From Minisyncoccia bacterium (lineage in GTDB: Bacteria; Patescibacteriota; Minisyncoccia; Phycocordibacterales; CALRBL01), in the NCBI GenBank assembly GCA_038230075.1, contig JBBRNV010000002.1, forward strand, positions 1 to 60,214: 60,214 nt of DNA, written 5' to 3'. Positions 3,787-58,803 of this stretch are shown here, piece by piece. The notes under the pieces are model-generated. The model did not search any database, had not been told where the DNA came from, and worked only from the letters and a program-made list of their open reading frames with translations. Positions within the stretch are counted from its first letter, which is position 1; every line of letters begins with the position of its first letter. The position numbers and the translations under genes are program-made.

Positions 3787-3787
3787 G

Positions 3788-4444: not shown

Positions 4445-4461
4445 GCAGTTATTGTATCAGA

Positions 4462-4944: not shown

Positions 4945-4964
4945 ACATATAGTATAGCAAAATT

Positions 4965-5711: not shown

Positions 5712-5750
5712 TCTAAATATTTTTTTGATTGATTAAATGTAACTAGAAGC

Positions 5751-18155: not shown

Positions 18156-18185
18156 ATAGCACTGACATTGTGTCAGTGCTATATG
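18153..18185. repeat. Perfect 15-bp inverted repeat overlapping comM start codon
   Basis: CATATAGCACTGACA-ttg-TGTCAGTGCTATATG. Confidence 0.85.
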
Positions 18186-25674: not shown

Positions 25675-25702
25675 TGTCTTCAAAAATTTGTTTTTGAAGA
25701 CA
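25675..25702. terminator. Hairpin after tRNA-Gly(GCC)
   Basis: TGTCTTCAAAAA-tttg-TTTTTGAAGACA. Confidence 0.55.
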
Positions 25703-33236: not shown

Positions 33237-34466
33237 CTAAGCCGCCGCCTCTTCTGTTTTTGATTCTGCTTGCTGCTCTACATTTTCAGCTCCTTCAACT
33301 TTTGTTGATTGGATGTCGATTCTCCATCCTGTTAATTTTGCTGCAAGTCGAACGTTTTGGCCTCCTTTTCCAATTGCGAGTGATTGCTGGTCTTCACTTA
33401 CTTCAACTCGAGCAACTCCTTCTGTTGCGTTGAGAGTGATTTTTAGAATTTTAGCTGGTGAAAGAGATTCTTCGATAAACTTCTCCATATCTGGTGACCA
33501 TTCAATAATATCGATCTTTTCTCCTCCGAGTTCACTGGTAACAGTATTAACTCGAACACCACGCTGACCAACCATTGAACCAACTGGATCAATGTGACTG
33601 TCGTTTGAAGCAACAGCGATTTTACTTCGTGATCCTGCTTCTCGGGCAGTTGCCTTAACTTCAACAGTTCCAGATGCGATTTCAGGTACCTCAATTTCGA
33701 ATAGTTTGGCTAAGAATTTAGGATGTGCACGTGAAAGTCGAAGGAAAATACCTCGGGGAGTCTCTTCAACTCGAGTTAGATACATTCGAACTCGTTCACC
33801 TTGTCGATATCGTTCACCTGGAATCTGCTCTTCAAATGGTAAAATACCCTGAGCCCGCCCCATATCGAAGAAAATATTACCTCTTTCCATTCTTTGAACT
33901 GTTCCTGAGACAATTTCTCCTTCTCGTTTGCCGTATTCTCCAAGAACTGAGACTTTTTCTGCCTCTCTGATCTTCTGAATGATGACTTGTTTAGCAGTCT
34001 GAGCAGCAATTCGCCCGAAATCATCTTTTGTTTCAAGGGGGAATACTAATTCGTCGCCAACCTTAGCCCCCTTTTTGATTTTCTGAGCATCTGCAAGCAA
34101 AATGTGGTGTTCTGCATTGAATCGAGGCTTTTCTTCGCCATCGAGAGCCTTGATTTCCTCGTCTTTGAAGTCATTTCTGCCGTGTGTATGGCTCTGTTGA
34201 GCTGTTTCTAATGGAATTTCTGTGTTTTCTGATTCTTCTTCGAAGATAACATTTGATTCATCAACTACAACTTTAACCTGTAAAAAGTCGGTTTTTCCAG
34301 AATTTATGTCAAAAGTCGCTCGAATAAGCTGACCTCGCTTTCCAAACTCCTTTTTATAAGCAGTAGCCAAAGCAAGCTCTATTGTTTCAAGCACTTTTTC
34401 TCTTGGTATTCCTCGTTCCTCTTCTAATTGATCGAGGACTGAATTGATTACTTTTAGGTCAAACAT
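33237..34466 (-). CDS. nusA: Transcription factor NusA
   Basis: Start MFDLKVIN; FGRIAAQTAKQVI, AREAGSRSKIAV, AIGKGGQNVRLAAKLTGWRIDI. Confidence 0.97.
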   Translation of the reverse strand: MFDLKVINSVLDQLEEERGIPREKVLETIELALATAYKKEFGKRGQLIRATFDINSGKTDFLQVKVVVDESNVIFEEESENTEIPLETAQQSHTHGRNDFKDEEIKALDGEEKPRFNAEHHILLADAQKIKKGAKVGDELVFPLETKDDFGRIAAQTAKQVIIQKIREAEKVSVLGEYGKREGEIVSGTVQRMERGNIFFDMGRAQGILPFEEQIPGERYRQGERVRMYLTRVEETPRGIFLRLSRAHPKFLAKLFEIEVPEIASGTVEVKATAREAGSRSKIAVASNDSHIDPVGSMVGQRGVRVNTVTSELGGEKIDIIEWSPDMEKFIEESLSPAKILKITLNATEGVARVEVSEDQQSLAIGKGGQNVRLAAKLTGWRIDIQSTKVEGAENVEQQAESKTEEAAA

Positions 34467-34510
34467 ATTATTGTATTTAATGAATAATTTTGGGTATTTT
34501 TTTAAAAAAA

Positions 34511-34533
34511 TAAGTCGCCGGACGGCGAACTTA
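34511..34533 (-). promoter_or_regulatory. Hairpin in nusA leader
   Basis: TAAG-TCGCC-ggac-GGCGA-a-CTTA, about 45 nt upstream of nusA. Confidence 0.4.
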
Positions 34534-34646
34534 GATAAAAGAACTATAGTAAATTTCCTAAGAAAAGTCAAAGTTCTTTCTAATATTTTTTTGTGTGTAT
34601 AACATGATTGTATGTGTGTGATGTGTCCTATATAATATGTACGAAT

Positions 34647-36401
34647 ATGAGGAAAATTATTATTTTGGTTGCTTCGTTGTTAATGATTGTTGCTACAATC
34701 ATCTCACAGTATTTTTTATTCTCATCTGTTGAAGCGCAAACGTCAGCAAGACAAATGTCTGGATGGGCTTGGTCTTCAAATATAGGATGGGTAAACTTTA
34801 GAGGAACTGACTCTCGAGGTACTCCTTTATATGGAGTTAATGTTGATCCTTCAACTGGTGCGCTTAGTGGATACGCTTGGTCTTCAAATCTTGGTTGGTT
34901 ATCTTTCAACTCTACTGATAGTCGAGTGTGTGGAACTCCTGCTGTCTATAATAATAGTACAAAAACATTTTCTGGTTTCGCGGTATTTTTGTCGGGAAAA
35001 AGCAGAACAGACGGATGGGATGGTTGTGTAAAATTAGGAAACTCAGGAATATACGGATGGATAGTTACCAATGCTAGAAAAGGATCTGGGAATGATCAGT
35101 TAAGCACTGATGCTCCAAATTTTGCATGGGGAAGTACTGTTGTTGGTTGGTTTAAGTCTTATAATCTTGAAATTTCTGGAAATACTAACGATACCGATGT
35201 TCCGTTTCCTGTCGCAACAAGCGGAGATTCTTGTGGGTTGATCAGCGTCAGTTGGGAACCTGTAACCGGCGCAAGTGCATATAATGTATACAAGAGTACG
35301 AGTGTTGATTCGGGCTACACAGTTTTTGCAAAAGGAACGACTACAACAAACTTTATCGACAACACACTCGATCAAAATGGTGGACAATATTTTTATAAAG
35401 TGTCGTCTATTATAAATGGTGTTGAAAGCGCCCTTTCTTCGCCGGTTTCTGCAAATGCACAAATTGCAGGTTGTACAGGAAGTAATGTTCCTGCGCCAAC
35501 AGCAGCAACAGGAGCATCGTGTGGATATGTAAACATTAGTTGGCCTCCCGTTAGTGGAGCAACAGGATATAGTGTTTATCGAAGTGCTAGTGTTGGCGGG
35601 GCATACTCATTAATCATTTCAGCAACAACATCTGCTGCAATTGCTGACAACACACAAGATCATGCGGGTGCTACATTCTACTATAAAGTCACCTCAATTG
35701 TTGGCGGAGTTGAAAGTCCACAGTCGAACCCTGTCTCTGCTGCTGCGCAAACAAATGGTTGTGTGGTGCTTAATCCTCCAAGTTCAGTATCTGCAGGAAC
35801 AGGCTCTCTTTGTGGAGGAATTGATATCTCTTGGAATGCAGCTGTTGGTGCTCATCATTACTATGTTTATCGAAGTACGAGCGCTGCGGGAACTTACGTA
35901 AATCGAACTCCAGGAGGAATACTCGGCCTCACATACACTGACCAAACAAGTAGTTCACTTGGAAATACTTATTACTACAAGGTTTCATCTGCAAATGCAG
36001 CAGGAGATCAAGAAAGCGCTCTTAGTTCACCAGCCGCATCTGCTTCGGCAAATACATCAGCGTGTCCTGCTGGAATCATTAACGCTTCGATCGATTCTTT
36101 CTTTGCTCAACCACCAGTTGTTCCTAAGGGCCGAGCATGTACCCTTGAATGGCATGGAGTAACTGGAGATACAAACTGTTCTGTATATAAAGATTCAATT
36201 AGTGTCGCAAATAAAGTCTACGATGTTCCGACTGTTCCTTTTGGAACAAGCACTCGTGCGGTTGATGGTAACTGGATTGCATCATCAAGTCTCCAGTCGA
36301 CAACACAGTATTGGTTACAATGTAATGGTGTTGGTGCAGGAGCACTTCAGGCTCAGATGCAAACCAAATGTTATCTTCCAACTAAATACACAGAATTTTA
36401 A
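34647..36401 (+). CDS. Secreted protein with WAWSSNxGW repeats and three FN3-like repeats
   Basis: Signal MRKIIILV; GWAWSSNIGWV, GYAWSSNLGWL; CGLISVSW, CGYVNISW, CGGIDISW repeats. Confidence 0.8.
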   Translation: MRKIIILVASLLMIVATIISQYFLFSSVEAQTSARQMSGWAWSSNIGWVNFRGTDSRGTPLYGVNVDPSTGALSGYAWSSNLGWLSFNSTDSRVCGTPAVYNNSTKTFSGFAVFLSGKSRTDGWDGCVKLGNSGIYGWIVTNARKGSGNDQLSTDAPNFAWGSTVVGWFKSYNLEISGNTNDTDVPFPVATSGDSCGLISVSWEPVTGASAYNVYKSTSVDSGYTVFAKGTTTTNFIDNTLDQNGGQYFYKVSSIINGVESALSSPVSANAQIAGCTGSNVPAPTAATGASCGYVNISWPPVSGATGYSVYRSASVGGAYSLIISATTSAAIADNTQDHAGATFYYKVTSIVGGVESPQSNPVSAAAQTNGCVVLNPPSSVSAGTGSLCGGIDISWNAAVGAHHYYVYRSTSAAGTYVNRTPGGILGLTYTDQTSSSLGNTYYYKVSSANAAGDQESALSSPAASASANTSACPAGIINASIDSFFAQPPVVPKGRACTLEWHGVTGDTNCSVYKDSISVANKVYDVPTVPFGTSTRAVDGNWIASSSLQSTTQYWLQCNGVGAGALQAQMQTKCYLPTKYTEF

Positions 36402-36403
36402 AC

Positions 36404-36766
36404 ATGGTCTACAATTTAAATCAAAACTTAGGAACGGAGTATCAAAAAGATGAACATCGAAAAAAAGTGTATACGGTTTTAGTTATTGCATGCATACTTT
36501 TAATTATTGGAATTATTATTTCGCTTTTTATATACAATAAAAGTTCGCCACCAGGCAACAGTAGTCCGACTGAGAAAAAAGAAGTGTTGTTCGATAAGAC
36601 ACAAGAAAATCTCGGACAAGATCTCAGTACAAAAGAAAAACAAGACTTGATTAAGATGACACAGACCCAACAAGTAAAAGCAACAAGTTCAAAAGGCCAA
36701 ACAACACAGACAACAATAAATCAAAGTAAAAAAACAGATTTAATAAATTTAACAGCAGGAAATTAA
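36404..36766 (+). CDS. Single-TM hypothetical protein
   Basis: 120 aa; one TM; 2 nt after upstream gene. Confidence 0.65.
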   Translation: MVYNLNQNLGTEYQKDEHRKKVYTVLVIACILLIIGIIISLFIYNKSSPPGNSSPTEKKEVLFDKTQENLGQDLSTKEKQDLIKMTQTQQVKATSSKGQTTQTTINQSKKTDLINLTAGN

Positions 36767-36776
36767 TAGCATTATT

Positions 36777-38870
36777 ATGAAAAAACACATTACAACAAGT
36801 CACCTTACAAGATTCCTTCTCACAGCACTTACAAGTGTCGCCTTCGTTCTTACTTCTTCATACCTTTATGCTCAAATATCCTCAGATGGTTCTACCTTCA
36901 CAGAACCAGCAGGAGCTCCTCCTGGATACAACACCAACACGCCTTTAAATGTTGGAACATCACCACAATCAAAAGCACCGACAAACGTTTCTGGAACTTC
37001 TACTTTGAACATTGGAGGAGTATTCAGTGCTGATGGAATCACTTCTTTTGGAAATGCTGCAATCGGTGGGAATCTTTATGTGACGAGTGGTAATGTGGGA
37101 ATCGGTTCAACAACACCTTCTCAGAAACTGAGTGTGACTGGAAATGTGGCAGCCACACAATTTTGTCTTCCCGGATCACTTCCTACAGGAGGTTGTGTAT
37201 CAAACTGGACGACGATAGGTGGTGGAGGAAGTACTTCAAGTACAAGCACGGTGAGTGGAACACTTAATAAATTTGCAAAATTTACCGCATCAAATGCAAT
37301 TGGAAACTCTATTCTTACAGAAAGTGGATCAAATGTAACTCTTGGATCAGTAAACAGTTCAATTCAAATCGGTCTTAATGATGCAACGCAAGGTTTCTGG
37401 ATCAGAAATGACGGATCAAATCCTGTGATCAGTACTAAAATCGGAGACATCTTCATGGGTTATTCTGGACGTTCTGGAATGGTATGGAGATTTGGTGCAA
37501 GTGGCACAGGTATGCTTATTTCAAACGATGCTCCAGCAAATGCTTTCACCATTGCTTCAAATGGAAATATTGGAGTTGGAAAAGCTGCTGGTGGAGTTGC
37601 AATGGATGTAGTTGGGCAAGTTAGAGCAGACGGCGCTTCGGCAGGTGTGATGATTAATGACCGTTCAACAAATAGACAATGGCAACTTTACGGATCTAAC
37701 GACAGTTTCCGTCTATATAATGGTGCTGCTGATGCTCTTACTGTTGACACAGTTGGAAATATTACCGCAGGTGCAATTGGTACAGCAGGTTCTCTTCCTA
37801 GTGACAAACCTTCAGGATGGGCGGGTGGAGTTTCAACATATGATGTGGTAGCGAAGGCATCAGTTCGAGCCAATCAATTCTGTATTGGGGGAGGAATTAA
37901 CTCAACTGCTACTGGAACTTGTATCACATCATGGCCAACTGGAAGTGGTTCACTTAGCGGAACAACAAATAAAATCACAAAATTCACCAGTAGTAGTGCG
38001 GTGGGTGACTCACAAATAACTGATACAGGAACAAATGTTGGGGTTGGTATTGCCGTACCAACTCAAAAATTGAGTGTAAACGGAACCATGAGTGTGAACG
38101 GAAGAATATTTACAGGTAACGGCGGAGGAATGTGGTTTGATAGTGATCTTACAAACAACGGTCATCAGTTTGTTGGAGCTATTAGTTCTACCCAATTAGG
38201 ATTTTATAATGATGGATGGAATTTTGTTCTAGATAATAGTGGTAAAGTTGGAATTGGAACGGTGTCGCCGTCACAACGTCTTGATGTTGCTGGAAATGTT
38301 AATGTGGGAGGAAATTTGTATGGGTCAAATGGAACAGAATTCCAAATTGCTCCAGCAAATGCTGGAGGCAATCTTAGACTTGATGCTAATGACAACACTG
38401 CAGGAGACGTGACTATTGGACTTATTAAAGCTCGTGCGGTAGAAGTGTTTGCTTCAGGTGAGCCTGTTTCAGGAACCGTGTTTGCGGTAACTAAACGAGG
38501 TTCACCCGCATCTTTTGTTCTCGATACAAGTAACAATGGAAACTTCTCAGGTAGTGTTACCGCAAACGCATTTTACTATCAGTCTGACGAACGATTGAAA
38601 ACAAATATTAAAACATTAGGAGATAGTCTAAGTAAGATCTTACAATTACGAGGAGTTTCATTTAATTGGAAAGAAACTGGTAAATCAAATATTGGATTAA
38701 TTGCTCAAGAAGTTGAGAAAGTCTATCCAGATGCAGTTACTACAAATGAGAAAACTGGAATCAAGAGTGTAGAGTATGCAAACCTTGTGGCACCACTTAT
38801 TGAAGCAGTAAAAGATCAACAAAAACAAATCGAAGCATTGAAAGTTGAAATTGAAAATCTAAAAAAATAA
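36777..38870 (+). CDS. Exported tail-fibre/spike-like protein with C-terminal peptidase S74 intramolecular chaperone
   Basis: Signal-like N-terminus; GNVGIG repeats; YQSDERLKTNI...LRGVSFNWK...IGLIAQEVEKVYP...VEYANLVAPLIEAVK coiled coil. Confidence 0.87.
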   Translation: MKKHITTSHLTRFLLTALTSVAFVLTSSYLYAQISSDGSTFTEPAGAPPGYNTNTPLNVGTSPQSKAPTNVSGTSTLNIGGVFSADGITSFGNAAIGGNLYVTSGNVGIGSTTPSQKLSVTGNVAATQFCLPGSLPTGGCVSNWTTIGGGGSTSSTSTVSGTLNKFAKFTASNAIGNSILTESGSNVTLGSVNSSIQIGLNDATQGFWIRNDGSNPVISTKIGDIFMGYSGRSGMVWRFGASGTGMLISNDAPANAFTIASNGNIGVGKAAGGVAMDVVGQVRADGASAGVMINDRSTNRQWQLYGSNDSFRLYNGAADALTVDTVGNITAGAIGTAGSLPSDKPSGWAGGVSTYDVVAKASVRANQFCIGGGINSTATGTCITSWPTGSGSLSGTTNKITKFTSSSAVGDSQITDTGTNVGVGIAVPTQKLSVNGTMSVNGRIFTGNGGGMWFDSDLTNNGHQFVGAISSTQLGFYNDGWNFVLDNSGKVGIGTVSPSQRLDVAGNVNVGGNLYGSNGTEFQIAPANAGGNLRLDANDNTAGDVTIGLIKARAVEVFASGEPVSGTVFAVTKRGSPASFVLDTSNNGNFSGSVTANAFYYQSDERLKTNIKTLGDSLSKILQLRGVSFNWKETGKSNIGLIAQEVEKVYPDAVTTNEKTGIKSVEYANLVAPLIEAVKDQQKQIEALKVEIENLKK

Positions 38871-38888
38871 ATCACACTTAAGATATTT

Positions 38889-39710
38889 ATGAAAAAAACT
38901 CTCGTAACTGCAGCAAGTATTGTCCTCGCTTTTGCTGGCGTTACTTTGTTGTACGGATATACCCATTCAACATACCGAGCAAGATATGTAAGTAGTTCTG
39001 AACAAGTGTCACAGTTATATGGACCAAACAACGAAGACTATGCAACTAACCAGGTTAACGAATATGGTCAATGTATTACCGTTATAAATACATCAAATAC
39101 AAATAAAGATGTGTTTATTCCAACAGCGTCTTCGTCTGAGTTTAATCTTTTCTTAAGTTCTGCAACAAATAATGGTGGATACCTAAAACAAAATGGTGTA
39201 AGTATTGGTGCTTGTAGTACAAACGTTGTTCACACTGGTTCTTGCTCGCAACAAATATTTCATGAACCAAATCCAACTGGTGGTACTAGATATCATGCCG
39301 ACATTCAAACAGCAAATCACGCATGTATATTGAAAGGGTACGAAGGAGGAAAAGTCATCTCAACAGTTTCTTTTGATTCTCCAAGTAACAACCACACTGA
39401 TTTTTGGAATGATGGATCAGTTGCTGGATATGGCGCTGGTTGGATCAACTCGGTAGCAAATGCTAACGCAAATCCTTATGGAATAGGCATGAACTCACTC
39501 ATTAGAGACCTTGCTTGTTACAGTGGAGGATCTTCATGTGCACTTGTTTGTGGAAATGGAAGAGTTGATGTTGGGGAACAGTGTGAGCCTGGTGCAAACA
39601 ATACAACACAAGACTTTTGTGGAAATGATGTTAATCAATGCGATCCAACTTACTGCGTTATTCCTTCGCATCATAGTGGTCCGGGATACACCACTGGTCC
39701 TTGTAACTAA
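38889..39710 (+). CDS. Secreted Cys-rich protein with Myxococcus-type (DUF4215-like) repeat
   Basis: Signal peptide; CGNGRVDVGEQCEPG; many Cys. Confidence 0.7.
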   Translation: MKKTLVTAASIVLAFAGVTLLYGYTHSTYRARYVSSSEQVSQLYGPNNEDYATNQVNEYGQCITVINTSNTNKDVFIPTASSSEFNLFLSSATNNGGYLKQNGVSIGACSTNVVHTGSCSQQIFHEPNPTGGTRYHADIQTANHACILKGYEGGKVISTVSFDSPSNNHTDFWNDGSVAGYGAGWINSVANANANPYGIGMNSLIRDLACYSGGSSCALVCGNGRVDVGEQCEPGANNTTQDFCGNDVNQCDPTYCVIPSHHSGPGYTTGPCN

Positions 39711-39733
39711 TATTTAAAAAAATTGAATAGTTT

Positions 39734-39775
39734 CTATACTGGCCATATTGACTAAAATCAATATGGCCAGTATAG
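39734..39775. repeat. Perfect 18-bp inverted repeat
   Basis: CTATACTGGCCATATTGA-ctaaaa-TCAATATGGCCAGTATAG. Confidence 0.85.
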
Positions 39776-39874
39776 TTATGTTCGGTAAGGTTGAGTGGTG
39801 TAAGCCTCACAGCTTGGACTTTTCAACAATAGTAAACCTCAGATCACATCGGTCAAAATTCGGTAATCAGCTCT

Positions 39875-40606
39875 ATGAAAACATACATCCGTCGGCTCCT
39901 TGCGAGCTTGTTGGTTCTCGTCGCGGCATGTGTCGCGTCTTCGGTTCATGCCCAGGTTTCGACCTCGGTAATGAGTCAGGCGGAGTACAACGCCTTCGTT
40001 GCGGTTCACCCGTTGTCTTTCAATGTGCAGCAGCAGGCAGGAGACAACTTCTTCGGAAGTGGGCCACAGTCGGAAGTTTTGATGTCAGGAGGAGTCGGAG
40101 GCAGTTATGGATCTGACTACGACTATTCGTTCTCAACTCAGACCCCCGTGACTGTAGCCGTTAATTCCGCCCTCATTAGGTCGAGCTTCTCAGAAGGTTC
40201 GCCGACAGGTGTCGTGATGAGTGGTGCCTTTCTGGCCACACTTCCTTCGTTTCTGGTCATCAGCGTGAGCACTACAGATTCGCGTTACCAGATCTCAGCA
40301 CAGGGAATCGTGGTGAACGGTCAAAACGTTTCTGCCGGAATCAGCACTTCAGTCGGCGCACAAACAATTCACCTGCTCATTTCTGGGTTAACCGCTGCGA
40401 CGCTCGATGTGTCATTGACCAGTATGTTTGGGAACAACGGTGCACCACCGCCATTCTCGACGTTCACCGGGAGCAATGAACAGCTTCGCATCGAAGGGTT
40501 CACCGGACAGATTCCGGAACCTTCCACAGTTGTAGCGTTCGCGATTGGCCTCGGCCTTATCGCTTTCGCTCAACGTCGGCGCAATGTTTGCGTCGGCAAC
40601 AGTTGA
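39875..40606 (+). CDS. PEP-CTERM sorting-domain protein
   Basis: Signal peptide ending VHA; C-terminal IPEPSTVVAFAIGLGLIAFAQRRR; GC-rich relative to flanks. Confidence 0.87.
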   Translation: MKTYIRRLLASLLVLVAACVASSVHAQVSTSVMSQAEYNAFVAVHPLSFNVQQQAGDNFFGSGPQSEVLMSGGVGGSYGSDYDYSFSTQTPVTVAVNSALIRSSFSEGSPTGVVMSGAFLATLPSFLVISVSTTDSRYQISAQGIVVNGQNVSAGISTSVGAQTIHLLISGLTAATLDVSLTSMFGNNGAPPPFSTFTGSNEQLRIEGFTGQIPEPSTVVAFAIGLGLIAFAQRRRNVCVGNS

Positions 40607-40628
40607 TCGCTTCGGCGGCAATCATCTG

Positions 40629-40666
40629 AGGACTCATGTGTTTTGCTTCGGCAAGCCATGAGTCCT
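40629..40666 (+). terminator. Hairpin/terminator after PEP-CTERM gene
   Basis: AGGACTCATG...TTGC-TTCG-GCAA...CATGAGTCCT then T-rich tract. Confidence 0.7.
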
Positions 40667-40716
40667 TTCGGTTTTTATATAATTTATTTTTTCATTTTCA
40701 TTTTTTTGTTTTGAGC

Positions 40717-40727
40717 TGTGATATAAT
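40717..40727 (+). promoter_or_regulatory. Extended -10 motif TGTGATATA(A/G)T, repeated at 42527 and 43071
   Basis: Same 11-mer before pilB, the 42544 ORF and pilC. Confidence 0.7.
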
Positions 40728-40738
40728 TTCACTCGTAT

Positions 40739-42493
40739 ATGTTCGTCAATGAACAACAGCTTCGAAATTTTATGCTTGACTCTGGCTTAATTGCCGAGGA
40801 AGACATTGATGCTGCCCAAAAAAAAGCAGAAGATAAAAATGTTTCGTTCGGACAAATTCTTGTTAATGAAGGAAAGCTTAAAGAAGATGATCTTCGTCGA
40901 ATGCATGCATATGTTCTCGGTATTCCTTTTGTTGAATTAAAAAATCAGAAAATAGATTTCGCCATTCTTTCACTTATTCCTGAACCAATTGCTCGAAATC
41001 ATAATATTATTGCGTATAAACGAACCGCTGATTCTCTTGAAGTTGCCATGCTTGATGGAGACGACCTCGGTGCAATTGACTTTGTTCGAAAGAAAGTAGA
41101 TCTTAGAATTCTTCCACGCCTTACCGATACAGAATCAATGAAATCGGCACTTCTTCAGTATCAGAAAAGTTTGAAAGCTGATTTCGGAGATATTATTCAG
41201 AAAGAATCCGTTAATATTAAATCACTTGTTGATAGTGATGGGGGAGCGCCTGCATCTGAGGCAGATTTGAAAAAGATGGCAGAAGATTTACCAGTTATTC
41301 GAATTGTTGACACACTTTTAAAACACGCCATTCTTCAAAATGCTTCCGATATTCATATTGAACCTCAAGAAACTGAGGTTATTGTTCGATATCGAATCGA
41401 TGGCTTGCTTCATGAAGCCATGGTTCTGCCAAAAAACGCAGGAGACTCAATTACAGCGCGCCTTAAGGTGCTTTCAAATTTAAAGCTCGATGAAAAACGA
41501 CTTCCACAAGACGGACGATTTAAAATTGAGATGAACGGCGAGAAAGTGTCATTTCGAGTATCAATGCTTCCTATTTATTACGGCGAAAAAACTGTAATGC
41601 GATTGTTGCGAGAAAATGTTTCTGGATTCACTCTTGAATATCTCGGTTTTCACGGAGAAGGCTTAGAGCGAATTTATGAATCAACCAAGCTCGCTAATGG
41701 TTTAATTTTAACAACAGGGCCAACGGGTTCTGGAAAAACCACCACGCTTTATACGGTGCTCGATATTTTAAATACACCCGATGTAAATATTTCAACCATT
41801 GAAGATCCTGTTGAATATCAAATGAAGCGTATTAATCAAACGCAGGTTAAGCCTGAAATTGGTTTTACGTTTGCCTCAGGTCTTCGATCGTTGGTGCGAC
41901 AAGATCCTGATGTAATTATGGTGGGAGAAATTCGAGATACAGAAACTGCCTCACTCGCCATTAACGCCGCACTTACGGGTCACTTGGTACTTTCGACACT
42001 TCACACCAACTCTGCGGCAGGTGCTATTCCTCGACTAATTGATATGCATTCAGAACCGTTTTTAATTGTTTCCACGATTAGCATTATTGTTGCCCAACGA
42101 CTTATTCGAAAACTAGGGGATAGTAAAGAAAAGTATTTCTTAACAAAAGATGAAATCGTCCAATTAGCTAAAAAGATTGATCTTGAACGTGTGCTTAAGT
42201 TCTTAAAAACAGAAAAAATTGTTAAAGCTGATGTTGAATGGGAAAAGATTCCGTTTTATAAAGCAGTTAAGACACCAGAAAGCGAAGACGGATTTAAGGG
42301 AAGAATTGGAATTCACGAAGTGCTTAAAATGAGTACAACTATTAAGGATATTATTATGAAAGGGGGGACAGCAGACGCTATTGAGGCGCAAGCCAAGAAA
42401 GATGGAATGATGACCATGCTTGAAGACGGAATCTTTCAGTGTGTACAAGGTGTTACAACTATTGAAGAAGTATTGAGAGTTATTTCAGAATAA
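40739..42493 (+). CDS. pilB: Type IV pilus assembly ATPase PilB/GspE
   Basis: ASDIHIEP, TGPTGSGKTT, EDPVE, RQDPDVIMVGEIRD, STLHTN. Confidence 0.95.
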   Translation: MFVNEQQLRNFMLDSGLIAEEDIDAAQKKAEDKNVSFGQILVNEGKLKEDDLRRMHAYVLGIPFVELKNQKIDFAILSLIPEPIARNHNIIAYKRTADSLEVAMLDGDDLGAIDFVRKKVDLRILPRLTDTESMKSALLQYQKSLKADFGDIIQKESVNIKSLVDSDGGAPASEADLKKMAEDLPVIRIVDTLLKHAILQNASDIHIEPQETEVIVRYRIDGLLHEAMVLPKNAGDSITARLKVLSNLKLDEKRLPQDGRFKIEMNGEKVSFRVSMLPIYYGEKTVMRLLRENVSGFTLEYLGFHGEGLERIYESTKLANGLILTTGPTGSGKTTTLYTVLDILNTPDVNISTIEDPVEYQMKRINQTQVKPEIGFTFASGLRSLVRQDPDVIMVGEIRDTETASLAINAALTGHLVLSTLHTNSAAGAIPRLIDMHSEPFLIVSTISIIVAQRLIRKLGDSKEKYFLTKDEIVQLAKKIDLERVLKFLKTEKIVKADVEWEKIPFYKAVKTPESEDGFKGRIGIHEVLKMSTTIKDIIMKGGTADAIEAQAKKDGMMTMLEDGIFQCVQGVTTIEEVLRVISE

Positions 42494-42543
42494 AAGCACA
42501 TATATACTTTTATTTTGATTTTTTCTTGTGATATAGTTTGCCT

Positions 42544-43050
42544 ATGGAACTACCAATAGAAAATACTCAAGAATCAGTTGATCACGCCGCAACTCAAAAG
42601 CTCATTAGAGAAGTGATGATGAAAGGTAGAAAGTTTGCTTACATAGCAATGGCCATCTTTGGTTTAAATGTTGCTTCGAATGTCGCAAAGAATGTTAATT
42701 CTATGAAGAATGATAACGAAATGACACAACGCTTGTTGGAAGTTGAAAAAACAAGGTCTGCTGAACTTTCTGTTGATCCTTCCCATAAACTTCAAGAACT
42801 AATGACTATTTTGAATACACGAATGTCATATCTTGATAAGAGTTTAAGAAAAGATGAACTCACTCCCGCTGATAGACTTCTCATTGCTGAGCTAAATAGA
42901 ATTGTTAATAGTGAAGATGTTTACACAAATGAATCGGCAGGAACAGGCTACTCTACTGAACCTTATGTATACAACACAGCCACACCTTCAAATGGTGTTG
43001 TTCCTAATGTTCAACCTGGCACAAATACTAAAATTCAAGAAGAGAAATAA
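42544..43050 (+). CDS. Single-TM hypothetical protein inserted between pilB and pilC
   Basis: Own -10 box 6 nt before ATG; KGRKFAYIAMAIFGL hydrophobic segment. Confidence 0.65.
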   Translation: MELPIENTQESVDHAATQKLIREVMMKGRKFAYIAMAIFGLNVASNVAKNVNSMKNDNEMTQRLLEVEKTRSAELSVDPSHKLQELMTILNTRMSYLDKSLRKDELTPADRLLIAELNRIVNSEDVYTNESAGTGYSTEPYVYNTATPSNGVVPNVQPGTNTKIQEEK

Positions 43051-43087
43051 TAGATATTCTTGTTTTTCTTTGTGATATAATTCGCAG

Positions 43088-44311
43088 ATGAAGTACACCT
43101 ATACTGCTCGCCGTGGCGACGGTACAACCTATCATGAGACAAAAGAATTTGCAGATAAGTTTGCGCTTTTCCACGAAGTAAAAAAAACAGGCGACACACT
43201 TGTTGAGTTTAAAGAAGATGCTGCACATGACGGCTGGTGGAATCATCTCGATGCATACGTTAACGACTTTTTTGGAAAAGTAAAAATGCAAGAACGAATA
43301 GCCTTCGCTCGAAACTTGGGAGGAATGCTTGAAGCGGGCCTCGCTCTGTCTCGAGCGCTTTCTGTGATGGAACGACAGACACGAAATAAGAAACTAAAGA
43401 AAATTTATGCAGACCTTAACGCTTCGATCAGTAAAGGAAAAACATTTCATGAAGCATTGGCTGATTATCCTAAAATTTTTAACACTCTTTTTATTTCAAT
43501 GGTGCGAGCAGGAGAAGAGTCGGGAACATTGGCAAAATCTTTGAGCCAAGTAGGACAGCAACTTGAGAAGAACTACATGCTTGGAAAGAAAATCAAAAGT
43601 GCAATGATTTACCCAGCAATTATCATCACTATTATGATTATCATTGGGATTTTGATGATGATTATTGTAGTTCCTCGACTTACTGAAACATTTAAAGATG
43701 TGCATGCCGAGCTTCCATGGAGCACCAAGTTGGTTATTTTTGTTAGTGACTTGTGCAAGTCATCATGGCCATATCTTATTTTAGGAGCGGTCGTTATTGC
43801 TACAGCTTGTTATTTTGCAGTACGCACTAAAGCTGGGAGATCATTCTTTGATTTTATTTTCATACACTTTCCTATCTTTGGAAGTATTGTAAGGGAAAGT
43901 AACACTGCAAGAACCGCTCGAACACTTTCATCATTACTTACGTCAGGAGTAGAAGTTGTTCTCGCCACACAAATTACAGGCGACGTTCTTCAAAACTCGT
44001 ATTATAAAGACGTCATGTACGGATTGGGAAAACAAATTGAAAAAGGAGATCCAATGTCAGAAACATTTTTGAAAAATGAAAAGCTTTTTCCGGTCTTTTT
44101 AGGTGAGATGGTGTCGGTAGGGGAAGAAACAGGTCGAATTTCTAATATGCTTGAAGGGGTGGCGGTTTTTTATGAAAATGAGGTTGATCAGAAAACAAAA
44201 GATATTTCGACTTTGATTGAGCCATTTCTCATGGTCATTATTGGTGTCTCTGTTGGATTTTTTGCAATTGCCATGATTACACCTACGTATTCGGTATTGA
44301 ATAATATTTAA
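43088..44311 (+). CDS. pilC: Type IV pilus platform protein PilC/GspF
   Basis: MVRAGEESGTL, KIKSAMIYP, VGEETG, LIEPFLMVIIG. Confidence 0.95.
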   Translation: MKYTYTARRGDGTTYHETKEFADKFALFHEVKKTGDTLVEFKEDAAHDGWWNHLDAYVNDFFGKVKMQERIAFARNLGGMLEAGLALSRALSVMERQTRNKKLKKIYADLNASISKGKTFHEALADYPKIFNTLFISMVRAGEESGTLAKSLSQVGQQLEKNYMLGKKIKSAMIYPAIIITIMIIIGILMMIIVVPRLTETFKDVHAELPWSTKLVIFVSDLCKSSWPYLILGAVVIATACYFAVRTKAGRSFFDFIFIHFPIFGSIVRESNTARTARTLSSLLTSGVEVVLATQITGDVLQNSYYKDVMYGLGKQIEKGDPMSETFLKNEKLFPVFLGEMVSVGEETGRISNMLEGVAVFYENEVDQKTKDISTLIEPFLMVIIGVSVGFFAIAMITPTYSVLNNI

Positions 44312-46141
44312 ATGTTTGCAAAAACATATACACATATAAAAAATAAGACCTCAGGATTCACTCTTGTTGAAATTTTGGTGGTAATTGCGGTTTTTGTTCT
44401 CATTATCAGTGCTATTTCAACAACATATAGTAAGACAATTAATTTGCTTACATATAATAAAATGAAAATCGATGCTATCGATTTGGCAAATGAACAAATT
44501 GAAATACTTCACAATCTTCCATTTGCAGATGTTGGAGTTGTTGGAGGTATTCCTTCAGGAAAGTTGGCTCATCAGTTTGCAACCACAAGAGATGGAAGTT
44601 CATTTGTGGTTACTACAACTATTAGAAACATCGATGATCCGGCAGATGGTACTCTTGGTGGCACACCAAACGATCTTTCTCCTGCAGATTACAAGTTGGC
44701 TGAAGTTGGAGTTTCATGTGATCGTGCATATTCTGCAGCCCAGGGTGCAACAAGTAGTTGCCTAAGCTTCACTCCTGTATCATTAACTGCAATCGTGGCG
44801 CCTAAGAACTTAGAAACAGCATCAAATAACGGTGCTTTGTTTGTTAAAGTTTTCGACGCCAATGGAATTGCTGTTTCAAATGCAGCTGTTCATATAAGTA
44901 ACACAAAAGTAACACCGAACATTACTATCGACGACACAACTGATACAAATGGATTACTTCAAATCGTTGACGCTCCAACAAGTACCAATGGATACTCAAT
45001 TAGTGTAACAAAGAGTGGATTCTCAACTGACAAGACGTATCCTGTTGTTGGATCAACAACACCATATAAGACAGACTCAACAGTTCTTGTTCAGCAAGTG
45101 ACACAAACAAGTTTGAGTATTGATCAGACAAGTACTATTAACTTCTCAAGTATCAATGCTTCTTGTGCCGCAGTACCAAGTGTTCGTTTCAAAATGGTCG
45201 GAGGAAAGCTAATTAGTGTTAATAATCCAAAGTCCACCTCGACAATAACTACTGATGCTGGTGGAAACTACACGATGAATAATGTGGAATGGGACACATA
45301 CAGCATTACCCCATTTGATCTCACATACGACATTATTGGACTAAATCCTATCTCACCAATCAGTGTTCTTCCAGGAAGCACTCAGCCAATTAGTATTATG
45401 GTTGAACCAAAGAATCCAAATATTGTTTTGGTAAATGTTAAAGACGGCTCAAGCAATCTTCCACTTTCAGATGCAATTGTTACTCTTTCTTCTGGCTCTA
45501 GTTCTGCAACTCTTCAAACTGGAAGAGGATTCGTGAGACAAACAAATTGGTCAGGAGGTGCCGGTCAAACAGATTTTTCTAATCAAACACGATTTGATAC
45601 GTCATCGAACATTAACTACTCGGGGGTGACAGGTCAGATTACCTTGGCCGCTGGTTTTTCAAGTGGAAATCTAACCTCTTCTATTATTGATATGGGAACC
45701 GCAACTAACTTTAATCAAATTTTGTGGGCGCCTACAAGTCAGCCAGTTCAAACAGGTGCGGCGACTTCAAGTGTTAGATTACAAATCGCAACAAGTAACA
45801 CTAACAATGCAACAACAACGTGGACATATGTAGGACCAGATAGAACATCAGGTACATACTTCACTACTGCTAACCAAACAATTAACGCCGCACAAAATGG
45901 AACACAATATATTCGATATAAAGTGTACCTTTCTACAGCAAACAATGCCTATACTCCAACAATTGCAGATGTCTCACTCACGTTTACTTCATCATGTGTT
46001 CCTCCAGGGCAAGTAGTATTTGATGGATTAAGTTCGGGAACATATAACTTATCGGTAACACGAAGTGGATATACTTCGTACGCTGGAACTGTTGATGTAT
46101 CAACTGCTTGGCAGGTAAGTAATATTTCAATGAATCCATAA
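44312..46141 (+). CDS. Very large prepilin (PilV-like) with beta-sandwich domains
   Basis: SG|FTLVEILVVIAVF class III signal; carboxypeptidase-regulatory-like VKVFDANG...YSISVTKSGF. Confidence 0.85.
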   Translation: MFAKTYTHIKNKTSGFTLVEILVVIAVFVLIISAISTTYSKTINLLTYNKMKIDAIDLANEQIEILHNLPFADVGVVGGIPSGKLAHQFATTRDGSSFVVTTTIRNIDDPADGTLGGTPNDLSPADYKLAEVGVSCDRAYSAAQGATSSCLSFTPVSLTAIVAPKNLETASNNGALFVKVFDANGIAVSNAAVHISNTKVTPNITIDDTTDTNGLLQIVDAPTSTNGYSISVTKSGFSTDKTYPVVGSTTPYKTDSTVLVQQVTQTSLSIDQTSTINFSSINASCAAVPSVRFKMVGGKLISVNNPKSTSTITTDAGGNYTMNNVEWDTYSITPFDLTYDIIGLNPISPISVLPGSTQPISIMVEPKNPNIVLVNVKDGSSNLPLSDAIVTLSSGSSSATLQTGRGFVRQTNWSGGAGQTDFSNQTRFDTSSNINYSGVTGQITLAAGFSSGNLTSSIIDMGTATNFNQILWAPTSQPVQTGAATSSVRLQIATSNTNNATTTWTYVGPDRTSGTYFTTANQTINAAQNGTQYIRYKVYLSTANNAYTPTIADVSLTFTSSCVPPGQVVFDGLSSGTYNLSVTRSGYTSYAGTVDVSTAWQVSNISMNP

Positions 46142-46142
46142 T

Positions 46143-46790
46143 ATGAAAATAACTTTTCAAAAAAAGAATAATGTAAAAAAAGGATTTACTTTGGTTGAAA
46201 TGATTGTTGTTCTGGGAATATTATCTGTTATCGGTCTTCTTGTCTCAGAATTTCAAGCAGAAGTATTTACGTATAACAGACTATTGAGTGCTGGTAATAC
46301 TGGGCGAACTGAAGGAACAAAAGTGGTGAAGCAGATTGCAGCAGAGCTTCGAGCGATGTCACCCTCGAGTGCGGGAGGTTATGCAATTGAAGATGTCGGA
46401 ACAAGTACTATCACATTCTATAATGACCTTGATGATGACGGGGTTAAAGAACGAATCAGATATTACCTTTCAGGTACGACGCTCTATAAGGGAACAATGA
46501 AGCCGATTATTAATGCATTCGGACAAACGCTTACTAGTGAAGCGACTTCTACCATTATCACCAATGTTGTAAATGATGCTGTGACTCCTATTTTTACGTA
46601 TTACGATACGGGGTATAACGGAGGACAATCAAGTGCGACTTCAAGTTCTGCACTTACGTATCCTATTAATATTTCAAACATTCGACTAATTAAAATTTCA
46701 GTATTTTCAGATAATAATAAGAAAGAACCTCTTGCTCCGTTGCAACTTCAGACACAAGTTTCGATAAGAAATCTTAAAGACAATTTATAA
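46143..46790 (+). CDS. Minor pilin PilW/GspJ-like
   Basis: KG|FTLVEMIVVLG; IAAELR; IRYYLSGTTLYKG; TQVSIRN. Confidence 0.85.
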   Translation: MKITFQKKNNVKKGFTLVEMIVVLGILSVIGLLVSEFQAEVFTYNRLLSAGNTGRTEGTKVVKQIAAELRAMSPSSAGGYAIEDVGTSTITFYNDLDDDGVKERIRYYLSGTTLYKGTMKPIINAFGQTLTSEATSTIITNVVNDAVTPIFTYYDTGYNGGQSSATSSSALTYPINISNIRLIKISVFSDNNKKEPLAPLQLQTQVSIRNLKDNL

Positions 46791-46791
46791 T

Positions 46792-48294
46792 ATGAATTTT
46801 TTTACTCTAAAAGATAAACAACAGAAAAAGAAAGTGAAAGGTTTCCTTCTTGTTGGTATTCTTGTGTTTGCCTCTGTGGCGGTGCTTGTTTTAACAGCTA
46901 TTGTTACAGGTGCTGTTGTTAATATTCGTTTAGTAAATAGTGAAATTGATCGTGAGCAGGCATTTCATATTGCAGAATCAGGGATTGAATATTATCGATG
47001 GCATTTGGCTCACTTTGCAACAGACTATAACGACGGGCACGGATCAACTTCGACGGGTCCGTATATTCATCAATTAAATGATAAAGACGGAAATGCTCTT
47101 GGAAACTTTATTCTGACCGTCACTCCTCCGATTTCAGGATCAACCCTTGTTAAAATTCAGTCGAATGGAGTTGATGCAAACGGTGCAAGTACCACACGAA
47201 AAATTACTTCGACTTTGGCAATTCCATCACTTGCAAAATACGCCGTTGCTGCAAACGACAATATGCGTTTTGGTCCGGGAACTGTGGTGTATGGGCCAAT
47301 TCATTCAAATGCAGGTATTCGATTTGACGGATTAACATACAACCTTATGACAAGTGCTTTGTCTGCATACGACGACCCAGATCACAGTGGTGGGCAAGAG
47401 TTTGCAGTTCACACACACGTTAATGCTCCACCGTCATTAGGTGTTAACGACACATTTCGCTCTGCTGAAGCCCCGCCAGCTTCAGTTCCAAGTAGAACTG
47501 ACATATTTAAAGCAGGAAGACAGTTTCCTGTGAGTTCGATTGATTTTAGTGGATTCACCACCGATCTCTCTGCAATGAAAACAAAGGCGCAGGCGAGTAG
47601 TACCTACTATGCTCCGTCAGGCGCTCGTGGATACCACATTATTCTCAAAACTAACGGAACCTTCGATTTATATAGAGTAAATACTCTCATGAATGCTCCC
47701 GGAGGTTGTACTGATCCTTCAGGAAGTGATGCTACGTGGGGGACATGGTCTATTTCAGCGGCGGGAGGTTCACAAACACTCATTGGAAACTATTCTATTC
47801 CTAATAACGGTGTTATTTTCACCGAAGATAACCTTTGGATCGACGGACAAATTAATACAAAACGAATAACCATTGCAGCCGGAAAGTTTCCTGATAACGC
47901 AGCAACACGACCTGCCATAACGGTTAACTCAAACCTTACTTACACCAACTACACAGGAACTGATGTTATTGCCCTTGTTTCTCAAGGAAATGTGAATGTG
48001 GGCTTAAATAGTGCTGATAATCTTAGAATAGATGGCGCACTTGTTGCTCAAAACGGAAGAACAGGGCGTTATTACTACGATGATGGTAGTTGTGGCTCAA
48101 CTGCAGATCGAACAAGTATTACCCTGTATGGCATGTTAGCTACAAACTTACGATACGGATTCGCCTATACTGACGGAACAGGGTATGCGACACGAAATAT
48201 TACTTATGATGGAACACTTTTGTACGGTCCTCCTCCAAGTTTTCCACTCACTTCAAACCAGTACCAGACAATTTCTTGGGAAGAATTGAAATAG
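46792..48294 (+). CDS. Minor pilin PilX-like with large C-terminal domain
   Basis: KG|FLLVGILVF (no E5); EQAFHIAESGIEY; C-terminal ISWEEL. Confidence 0.82.
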   Translation: MNFFTLKDKQQKKKVKGFLLVGILVFASVAVLVLTAIVTGAVVNIRLVNSEIDREQAFHIAESGIEYYRWHLAHFATDYNDGHGSTSTGPYIHQLNDKDGNALGNFILTVTPPISGSTLVKIQSNGVDANGASTTRKITSTLAIPSLAKYAVAANDNMRFGPGTVVYGPIHSNAGIRFDGLTYNLMTSALSAYDDPDHSGGQEFAVHTHVNAPPSLGVNDTFRSAEAPPASVPSRTDIFKAGRQFPVSSIDFSGFTTDLSAMKTKAQASSTYYAPSGARGYHIILKTNGTFDLYRVNTLMNAPGGCTDPSGSDATWGTWSISAAGGSQTLIGNYSIPNNGVIFTEDNLWIDGQINTKRITIAAGKFPDNAATRPAITVNSNLTYTNYTGTDVIALVSQGNVNVGLNSADNLRIDGALVAQNGRTGRYYYDDGSCGSTADRTSITLYGMLATNLRYGFAYTDGTGYATRNITYDGTLLYGPPPSFPLTSNQYQTISWEELK

Positions 48295-48312
48295 TTTTGT
48301 ATAATGCTAGGT

Positions 48313-49104
48313 ATGAAGATACAACGAAAGCCTGCGAGTAAGAAAAAACTTATTGTTGCTAATTGGAAGATGAATCCCGAACTCTTAGGTGATGCAAAAA
48401 AGATTCTTCAAAAAATAAAAAAAGGAATTACTCGAGCAAAACATTCCGATGTGGTATTTTGTCCACCAGCTCTCTTTCTCGGAGATCTTCGAGGAAAAAG
48501 CGTTTCGTTAAAAACAGGAAAAGTTTCTTACGGTGTACAAAACATTACTACTGAAGTACAAGGAGCTCATACGGGTGAAATTTCTGCAGAAATGGCTAAA
48601 AGTGCAGGGGTGCGATATGCTATCGTCGGACACTCTGAAAGAAGGGCACTCGGAGAAGATGATCTGCTGATTGCCAAGAAAGTTGCCGCCGCCCTTCGTG
48701 CCGATATAACTCCCATTCTGTGCATTGGCGAACTTAAAAGAGATGAAACAGGAGAGTCACTTCAGATTCTGTACTCACAACTTAAGGCTAGTCTTGGATT
48801 GGTGGCGGTAAATAATATTTCAAAAGTGGTAATCGCATACGAACCAGTGTATGCGATTGGAGCCGCTCAAGCAGTTACACCTCACCATGTTCACGAACGA
48901 AACATATTCATTAAGAAAGTACTCACAGAGTTATTTGGAAAAGATAATGCATTTAAGGTGAAGATTTTATACGGAGGATCTGCTGATGAAACAAATGCAA
49001 AAGCGCTAGTTGGTGACGGTGCCGTCGACGGACTTCTTTTAGGCAGAGCGAGTGTTAACCCAGAAACGTTTATTACGATAGTGAAAGAGATAGATCAATT
49101 ATAA
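48313..49104 (+). CDS. tpiA: Triosephosphate isomerase
   Basis: ANWKMN, GAHTGEIS, VGHSERR, AYEPVYAIG, LYGGS. Confidence 0.96.
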   Translation: MKIQRKPASKKKLIVANWKMNPELLGDAKKILQKIKKGITRAKHSDVVFCPPALFLGDLRGKSVSLKTGKVSYGVQNITTEVQGAHTGEISAEMAKSAGVRYAIVGHSERRALGEDDLLIAKKVAAALRADITPILCIGELKRDETGESLQILYSQLKASLGLVAVNNISKVVIAYEPVYAIGAAQAVTPHHVHERNIFIKKVLTELFGKDNAFKVKILYGGSADETNAKALVGDGAVDGLLLGRASVNPETFITIVKEIDQL

Positions 49105-49128
49105 ATATAAAAAATCCCAACCTGTTAT

Positions 49129-58112: not shown

Positions 58113-58535
58113 ATGAAAACAAGCACAGTGTTCGACTTGATTGGTCTTTGTGCCACGATCCTTGGTGTGATCGCTCTCATTGCCACCTTTTACTTCTGGG
58201 ACCAGGAGGCATCACACTTTCTCTTCCCGATCGGCCTTAGCCTACTCCTCGTCGGCTCGACCCTGATCTGGTTCGGCGAGTTCTACAAATGGGAAAAGAA
58301 TCTCGATCACCTCTCCGAGGTTTTTGCTACACTAGCGAGCATGTGTGGATTTGTATGCATCGCCTGTTTCTTCTTCGCTTTTCGCGATATGGAAAGCGAC
58401 GACTTTGATTACTACGGTTTCGCCGCGGTTATCGCGCTTGCCGAAGGCTTCGTTTTCCATGTTTGTAGTCGGCCATGTGTTGAACTGGAAAGGCGACAGC
58501 CTCCTCCGAATCTCACGCCAGGTTGCATGAATTAA
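58113..58535 (+). CDS. GC-rich four-TM hypothetical protein
   Basis: Start MKTSTVF; four hydrophobic helices; composition differs from flanks. Confidence 0.6.
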   Translation: MKTSTVFDLIGLCATILGVIALIATFYFWDQEASHFLFPIGLSLLLVGSTLIWFGEFYKWEKNLDHLSEVFATLASMCGFVCIACFFFAFRDMESDDFDYYGFAAVIALAEGFVFHVCSRPCVELERRQPPPNLTPGCMN

Positions 58536-58587
58536 TGACGGCAACCACAAGATCGACTGATCTGCTGGCACTGTTTTGTCACCCAAG

Positions 58588-58616
58588 AAAGGCCACCTCA
58601 CAAGGGAGGCCTTTTT
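58588..58616 (+). terminator. Intrinsic terminator
   Basis: AAAGGCC...GGCCTTT followed by T tract. Confidence 0.7.
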
Positions 58617-58803
58617 CTTTTGCCATTTCTTTGTATATATAGTATAGTCGCTGAACGTCATCCGATGGCTTCTGGCTCTAAAAAGCTTGAAAACAGCAGA
58701 TGTCAGTAAATTAATAGTGATGAGCTTAGTAACTAATGGCTGTACTACACAGTCAAAAGTGAAAGAAAGCCTCATCAAATGTTAGAAATAATCACATAGC
58801 AAT

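Follow-up and report, generated by a model that had tools for sequence, protein, structure and literature searches.

A PEP-CTERM protein gene of foreign composition in the variable nusA–pilB gap of a patescibacterial genome

The closest described systems to the gene considered here are the PEP-CTERM/exosortase (EpsH, XrtA) systems of diderm environmental bacteria (Haft et al. 2006, PMC1569441). In the genomes of that survey, members of the EpsH family were present wherever PEP-CTERM proteins were present, an outer membrane accompanied every PEP-CTERM genome, and genomes that use the system had a median of 8 PEP-CTERM genes each. Besides the C-terminal sorting domain, which has about 24 residues and joins a Pro-Glu-Pro motif to a hydrophobic transmembrane helix and a basic cluster, the proteins share a set of secondary traits: a signal peptide, few basic residues, no cysteine, enrichment in serine and threonine, typically no discernible homology outside the tail, and a gene that forms a single-gene unit behind a sizeable intergenic region (PMC1569441). 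In 87% of them fewer than 10 residues lie beyond the domain, they rank with the fastest-evolving proteins of the genomes that encode them, and their tails cluster by lineage (PMC1569441). Here we describe a gene of this class at 39875..40606 of a 60,214-nucleotide stretch (the window) of contig JBBRNV010000002.1, from a bacterium of the Minisyncoccia, within the Patescibacteria or candidate phyla radiation (CPR). In the literature searched, no paper links PEP-CTERM proteins or exosortases with Patescibacteria or CPR; the two subjects meet in one paper, by way of an entry in its reference list. The gene probably represents a recent single-gene PEP-CTERM cassette that passed from a donor of about 50–55% G+C (GC) content into a CPR insertion hot spot, and whose product would be a plain tail-anchored surface protein.

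The product of 39875..40606 is a genuine PEP-CTERM protein, because its matches to Pfam family PF07589 and to TIGR02595 exceed the curated cut-offs and the secondary traits described by Haft et al. are present. The tail, residues 212–236 (IPEPSTVVAFAIGLGLIAFAQRRR plus 7 more residues), covers both models at full length, with 23.9 bits against a cut-off of 20.7 for PF07589 and 21.4 bits against a cut-off of 16 for TIGR02595. The signal peptide and the complete IPEPST–transmembrane (TM)–RRR tail that had been described in an earlier model-generated note on this DNA, made without database searches (the sequence-only reading), are thus both present. The N-terminus, MKTYIRRLLASLLVLVAACVASSVHA followed by QVS, starts with basic residues, continues with a hydrophobic core and shows, by eye, V-H-A at positions −3 to −1; with Kyte–Doolittle hydropathy of up to 2.19 across residues 3–30, it is clear by inspection as a predicted Sec-type signal peptide. 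The mature part (residues 27–211) contains 16.2% serine, 8.6% threonine, 4.9% asparagine and 1.6% arginine, has neither lysine nor cysteine, and carries a net charge of −7. Seven residues (NVCVGNS, ending at 40603) follow the RRR, and the gene is a single-gene unit preceded by a 164-nt intergenic region. A single-sequence AlphaFold2 model places a helix at residues 2–26, and its overall predicted local distance difference test score of 36.7 makes it unusable for the mature domain. Within that domain, residues 111–133 (40205–40273), VVMSGAFLATLPSFLVISV, form an internal stretch with a mean hydropathy of 2.04, equal to the signal peptide in hydrophobicity, which might correspond to a buried strand, to a helix or to an additional membrane segment. 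The protein by itself is an ordinary, though new, representative of the PEP-CTERM class; the unusual point is that a diderm sorting signal occurs in a CPR genome.

Why does a CPR genome carry a signal of this kind? The explanation lies in horizontal transfer, an ordinary process, to which the composition of the gene points. The GC content of the open reading frame (ORF) is 0.538, compared with 0.384 for the window, and is the highest of all 732-bp segments (z = 5.2); the spot counts of the sequence-only reading, about 48–55% against about 33%, had the right direction and roughly the right size. By codon position the values are 0.54, 0.50 and 0.58. The GC content at third codon positions (GC3) is 0.578, against 0.20–0.37 in 54 of the 55 other genes, and a leave-one-out codon-usage score places the gene last of the 56 (z = −5.2). 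The protein has only 1 lysine and 8 arginines among its 243 residues, whereas lysine averages 7.2% in the other proteins of the window. Since the anomaly extends to codon and amino-acid choice alike, it is no by-product of a Gly/Ala-rich sequence. In a 100-nt profile GC rises abruptly at about 39850 and falls again at about 40600, and the GC-rich segment delimited by change-point analysis spans the ORF together with its own terminator. This compositional evidence gives good support to horizontal acquisition. The way in which codon-position GC generally follows the GC of the genome suggests that the donor was a bacterium of roughly 50–55% GC, and as the codon-position values still lie close to those of such a donor, there would have been little amelioration, implying a recent event. 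Coordinates of the gene, its parts and its surroundings are given in the table.

Table. Coordinates of the PEP-CTERM gene, its parts, its flanks and other features of the window
Feature	Coordinates	Strand	Basis or remark
PEP-CTERM protein gene	39875..40606	+	complete ORF, 243 aa + stop codon
Signal peptide, residues 1–26, MKTYIRRLLASLLVLVAACVASSVHA	39875..39952	+	inspection and hydropathy; predicted cleavage before Q27
Mature domain, residues 27–211	39953..40507	+	strand-rich second half
PEP-CTERM sorting domain, residues 212–236: IPEPST, TM helix VVAFAIGLGLIAFAQ, RRR	40508..40582	+	
GC-rich segment	39889..40670	.	maximum-likelihood change points; 0.543 inside vs 0.373 outside; log-likelihood ratio 31.6
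Perfect 18-bp hairpin, 6-nt loop	39734..39775	+	arms 39734–39751 and 39758–39775, 100% complementary
Intrinsic terminator of the PEP-CTERM gene	40628..40678	+	stem 40628–40667, then T-rich TTCGGTTTTTAT
nusA, conserved left border of the gap	33237..34571	-	Pfam NusA_N, S1, KH_5
Four cargo genes of native composition, secreted/anchored proteins	34608..39710	+	Pfam and PHROGs; GC3 0.23–0.25
pilB (type IV pilus ATPase), conserved right border	40739..42493	+	Pfam T2SSE, MshEN
VirB4/TraG P-loop ATPase	1963–3786		
PrgI-family protein	4462–4944		
1154-aa protein, 8 TM segments	5751–9215		weak CD3337/EF1877 mobilome-membrane match

The identity of the recipient is given by PilB, which has 80 relatives in GTDB species genomes, the best of them 72–75% identical and nearly all of them labelled Patescibacteria, Parcubacteria, Paceibacteria, Taylorbacteria and similar. 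These relatives confirm, by sequence similarity, a recipient within the Patescibacteria (CPR), of the Parcubacteria/Paceibacteria type and with about 38% GC, in agreement with the earlier impression of a CPR-like genome. CPR cells, as far as is known, have no outer membrane. The envelope-related genes in the window comprise a type IV pilus operon, ComEC, LysM/M23 and peptidoglycan-binding proteins, and a Gram-positive-type type IV secretion cluster at 1963–9215; to judge from their predicted products they are of the monoderm kind, and no outer-membrane or exopolysaccharide (EPS) genes were found among the window proteins scanned.

Comparison of related loci shows that the gene occupies a variable region. 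In 54 of the 80 related loci (L002–L081) nusA lies no more than 10 kb upstream of pilB, with a gap that ranges from 14 nt to 9.6 kb and a cargo that differs among loci, consisting mostly of lineage-specific signal-peptide proteins with an occasional transposase and, in L050, transposase-like ORFs. We regard the space between the divergent nusA and pilB, on the strength of these comparisons, as a variable insertion hot spot across Patescibacteria. In the window the gap (34572–40738) measures 6.2 kb and holds five genes, of which the PEP-CTERM gene is the last and nearest to pilB. It is the only one of the five that is foreign in composition, and it has no homologue in the 80 related loci. The other four encode a 597-aa protein with Ig-like domains, a 120-aa membrane protein, a 697-aa protein and a 273-aa Cys-rich orphan. 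The 697-aa protein (36777–38870) combines a signal peptide and a body resembling a tail fibre with a Peptidase_S74 intramolecular chaperone domain at its C-terminus. Its matches to PHROG tail-fibre and baseplate families reach 2.5e-33; there are no other phage genes around it, and it has the appearance of a cellular surface fibre that follows the plan of a phage tail fibre.

A separate observation concerns the locus with the most similar PilB, L003. Its gene just upstream of pilB (3924–5339) encodes a 471-aa protein with a signal peptide and no family match, and has a GC3 of 0.49 compared with a locus background of 0.31. This gene may be of foreign origin too, inserted in parallel at that position.

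The sequence-only reading had the gene bounded by an 18-bp inverted repeat and by its own terminator. The repeat is real and perfect, but it is a single hairpin behind the upstream gene rather than a pair of flanking arms. It has a folding energy of −33.5 kcal/mol (z = −9.6), begins 24 nt past the stop codon that closes the upstream 273-aa gene at 39710, and its 18-nt arm has no other copy within the window. Perfect hairpins without a T-run also stand right after genes at 18153–18185 (15 bp) and 25675–25702 (12 bp, behind tRNA-Gly). These two are likely to be the usual terminators of this genome, and the hairpin at 39734–39775, which is of their style, most likely terminates the 273-aa gene. 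The candidacy of this hairpin as the end of a mobile element was rejected on these grounds, as one hairpin that sits behind the upstream gene and resembles the other post-gene hairpins. The sole flanking direct repeat, the 8-mer TATGTTCG at 39777 and 40738, was likewise rejected as a target-site duplication, because chance would give about 0.5 matches of this kind between the flanks. The terminator of the PEP-CTERM gene itself is confirmed: the hairpin at 40628–40667 is followed by a T-run, its arms 40629–40638 and 40657–40666 pair perfectly, and the RNA fold has an energy of −27 kcal/mol (z = −4.1).

The join between the gene and its surroundings is reproduced by independent assembly. A 16,392-bp Logan contig from run SRR19962015, produced with a different assembler, is 100% identical to window positions 33863–50254, and as it runs on for 6 kb and 9.6 kb beyond the gene on its two sides there is no break at the gene borders. 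Among the Logan contigs of this run no other is 80% or more alike to any part of the gene, bar a 40-nt chance match, and none skips the gene. At the contig level a chimera at these boundaries is thus highly improbable, a second assembler giving the same join with no competing path. The only other sample with this organism is a salt-lake metagenome from another study (X2), in which a 270-nt contig of depth 2 is 100% identical to 39315–39584 of the 273-aa gene. The same species seems to be present there as traces; nothing else from the surrounding 20 kb was found in X2, and the 270-nt piece is uninformative on the PEP-CTERM gene. An apparent joint in X2 from 39380 to 40672 is spurious, as it rests on 21 letters of a poly-T stretch.

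Searches with the mature domain returned no relative from any collection. A word-indexed search of 5.8 billion clusters (about 15 billion proteins) recovered only the query itself, and an exhaustive phmmer search of 1.84 billion representatives gave a single protein besides the query, P0002 from JGI, in which each of three FGE-sulfatase units ends in a PEP-CTERM tail. The similarity to P0002 is confined to the tails, the query tail aligning to all three of them. No homologue was found in tblastn-confirmed scans of GTDB genomes, JGI metagenomes and IMG/VR or by tblastn against plasmids and phages, and PDB sequences and PHROGs gave no match to the protein. This outcome is expected, as PEP-CTERM proteins are typically without homology beyond the tail (PMC1569441). 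The upstream signals of proteobacterial PEP-CTERM genes are also missing, TTTACA being absent from 39600–39880 and no GG-N10-GC site within 3 mismatches of TGGCAC-N5-TTGCA occurring upstream of the gene; one pointer to the donor is thereby lost, and the donor may still be proteobacterial. For the sequence-only reading the consequences are mixed. Its proposal of acquisition from a host or neighbour holds as far as acquisition is concerned, which composition, codon fit and the hot spot all favour, but the searches, which returned no homologue of the mature domain, point to no donor. Its suggestion that the gene could identify the host lineage fails for the same reason, only the tail having matches in the databases searched, and the practical value of the gene as a host marker is low at present.

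No member of the exosortase/archaeosortase families was found in the 60-kb window when its polytopic and unassigned membrane proteins were scanned against Pfam and, for those without assignment, NCBIfam. The scan covered about half of the 56 ORFs, including all with several predicted TM segments, and it agrees with the sequence-only reading, which had seen no exosortase. The polytopic proteins were assigned to ComEC, Peptidase_M50, PilC and components of the type IV secretion system. In a scan with the tail pattern this protein was the only PEP-CTERM protein of the window, and about 1.3 Mb of sequence from the 80 related genomes yielded no such tail. The search for an exosortase and for paralogues in this organism thus spans the 60-kb window of a source contig of at least 168,679 bp, the genome being larger still; of the proteins at the two ends of the window, one had no record and the other falls on a 2.2-kb Logan contig.

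Expression signals in the window follow a pattern of their own. A Shine–Dalgarno core is found upstream of only 2 of the 56 window genes, and TGnTATAAT-type elements stand 0–15 nt before the start codons of pilB, pilC and the genes at 42538, 13450, 20546 and 50797 (example regions 40718–40738, 43068–43087 and 42525–42537), that of pilB at about 40718–40727, 11 nt before the start codon. The rarity of the former and the closeness of the latter to the starts suggest that most mRNAs are leaderless or have very short leaders. The PEP-CTERM gene lacks a Shine–Dalgarno sequence, and no −10-like hexamer lies within 45 nt of its start codon, whereas such a hexamer is present in 18 of 25 comparable genes. 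The nearest promoter-like site, TTGACT-17-TATAGT, is 98 nt upstream, inside the upstream hairpin, and such matches occur at chance frequency.

A second gene of foreign composition is found 18 kb from the PEP-CTERM gene, at 58116..58535. Read from its ATG (the listed ORF begins at 58002) it encodes 139 aa with four hydrophobic segments; its GC is 0.50 and its GC3 0.58, it ranks second from last in the window by codon fit, and it has its own strong hairpin terminator at about 58583–58615. No homologue and no family was found for its product. A sub-threshold Rfam hit to ctRNA_p42d (58586–58623; 36 bits against a gathering score of 50) corresponds to this terminator hairpin. Small GC-rich acquisitions may be recurrent in this genome.

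How, then, might the PEP-CTERM gene have arrived, and what would its product do? The cassette would consist of the ORF and its own terminator, about 0.8–0.9 kb, landing at the pilB-proximal edge of the variable nusA–pilB gap, and a plausible route of entry is by way of the DNA-uptake apparatus whose genes the window contains (type IV pilus operon, ComEC). If expressed, the protein would be exported by the Sec pathway and its signal peptide removed by signal peptidase. We infer a recipient of the monoderm type that lacks a cognate exosortase; in the absence of that enzyme the C-terminal helix would hold the protein in the cytoplasmic membrane, with the RRR inside, as the positive-inside rule would have it, and the acidic, Ser/Thr-rich domain of about 185 residues exposed at the cell surface. 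In a cell of the monoderm type, a membrane-anchored protein amounts to surface display. The gene may just as well be a recent passenger with poor expression, the promoter pattern of the neighbouring genes being absent from it.

Several points weigh against capture of a cassette with this fate. With neither donor nor homologue found, the case for transfer is made by composition and context, and the absence of homologues in itself says little, given that the native 273-aa neighbour is also an orphan. The hydrophobic stretch at residues 111–133 could complicate a simple topology, and expression of the gene, judged by its upstream region, is uncertain. The join was compared at the level of contigs, and this, together with the sharpness of the GC steps at the gene borders and the fact that the gene is known from a single sample, might suggest an artefact in which some 0.8 kb of DNA belonging to another, GC-richer organism of the sample had been spliced into a CPR contig. 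Such an artefact would, however, require two chimeric joins, both in intergenic spacer and together preserving an entire ORF, its signal peptide, its tail and its terminator; two assemblers gave an identical path, no other contig of the run carries a part of the gene or skips it, and there is no break nearby, all of which makes the artefact highly improbable. An exosortase and further PEP-CTERM genes may, on the other hand, lie elsewhere in the genome. A working PEP-CTERM/exosortase system, with an exosortase (perhaps co-acquired) and more PEP-CTERM proteins outside the window, would have the protein cleaved and sorted as in diderms, and would be in keeping with the intact, canonical tail, with the co-occurrence of EpsH and PEP-CTERM proteins in the surveyed genomes (PMC1569441), and with the fact that the window is the only visible part of the genome. 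We nevertheless think it distinctly unlikely, for there is one PEP-CTERM gene in the window and none in the 1.3 Mb of 80 related genomes, against a median of 8, and this single copy is of foreign composition; the recipient lineage, moreover, is of the monoderm type without an outer membrane, and the literature searched shows no link between this system and CPR.

A humbler possibility is that the gene is a neutral and transient passenger, foreign DNA that has integrated, is unexpressed or useless, and is destined to decay. The lack of amelioration, of a Shine–Dalgarno sequence and of a native-style −10 element near the start codon, together with the absence of a cognate enzyme from the window, are as expected for such a passenger, and the GC-rich orphan at 58116..58535 suggests that small acquisitions have been repeated. 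Yet the ORF is intact, both sorting signals are complete, the gene has its own terminator and the locus is otherwise devoted to surface proteins, none of which is proof of selection, and there is the promoter-like site 98 nt upstream, albeit one expected at chance frequency. On balance we consider a passenger unlikely, yet a young and poorly expressed one deserves to be taken seriously. CPR bacteria are episymbionts, and PEP-CTERM proteins, as Gao and co-workers reportedly found in 2018, are needed for floc formation in Zoogloea. An exosortase works inside the membrane of the very cell that produces its substrate, and for this reason we know of no precedent for processing across cells. A study that cites Gao and co-workers reports Patescibacteria as episymbionts of Zoogloea (PMC11393006), and such circumstantial links, with the position of the gene beside the type IV pilus operon, could be taken to suggest a host-derived mimic, which the episymbiont displays or releases, and which is recognised by the exosortase or EPS matrix of the host and so aids attachment. 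Against this stand the lack of an identified donor or host, the want of a precedent for cross-cell processing and the lack of evidence of expression, and we regard it as extremely improbable. A related proposal, that the CPR bacterium captured a PEP-CTERM surface protein of its diderm host and shows it beside the pilus to blend into or bind the exosortase-dependent protein–polysaccharide matrix of that host, is very unlikely; if true, orphan PEP-CTERM genes in CPR would be markers of host identity and of mimicry-based attachment.

If our placement of the gene as a recently captured, tail-anchored cassette is right, the locus represents a clean and well-delimited recent gene capture by an ultra-small CPR bacterium, in which the captured sorting signal belongs to a machinery that has no known counterpart in the envelope type of the recipient. 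It would then be a natural test of the role of the PEP-CTERM tail without exosortase. It would also offer a small piece of evidence on the kinds of neighbours with which such bacteria exchange DNA, namely PEP-CTERM-bearing diderms of about 50–55% GC. The wider pattern, of a nusA–pilB gap that gathers surface-protein genes and of a second GC-rich orphan in the same window, is maybe the more useful lead.

Comparison with known systems places the gene at the meeting of several of them. With the PEP-CTERM/exosortase systems of diderms (PMC1569441) it shares a canonical PEP–TM–basic tail, 7 residues from the C-terminus, and its organisation as a single-gene unit with its own terminator; it differs in being found in a monoderm-type CPR bacterium with no exosortase in 60 kb, as a single copy of foreign composition instead of a member of the usual multi-copy families. 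Many proteobacterial PEP-CTERM genes, such as those of the PrsK/PrsR/PrsT, sigma-54 regulon, have −24/−12 sigma-54 sites and TTTACA upstream, in contrast to this gene, which has neither. The LPXTG/sortase system of monoderms offers a likeness of another kind, with its tripartite C-terminal signal, a comparable envelope and predicted surface display. Here, however, the motif is PEP and there is no sortase recognition site, so that covalent attachment to the wall is not expected. Finally, although the sorting signal belongs to a system not reported for the radiation in the literature searched, the gene resembles other laterally acquired genes of CPR variable regions: it is a small cargo of atypical composition set between the core genes nusA and pilB, it is accompanied by a second such gene at 58116..58535, and it lies in a genome that encodes the means of DNA uptake, a type IV pilus and ComEC.

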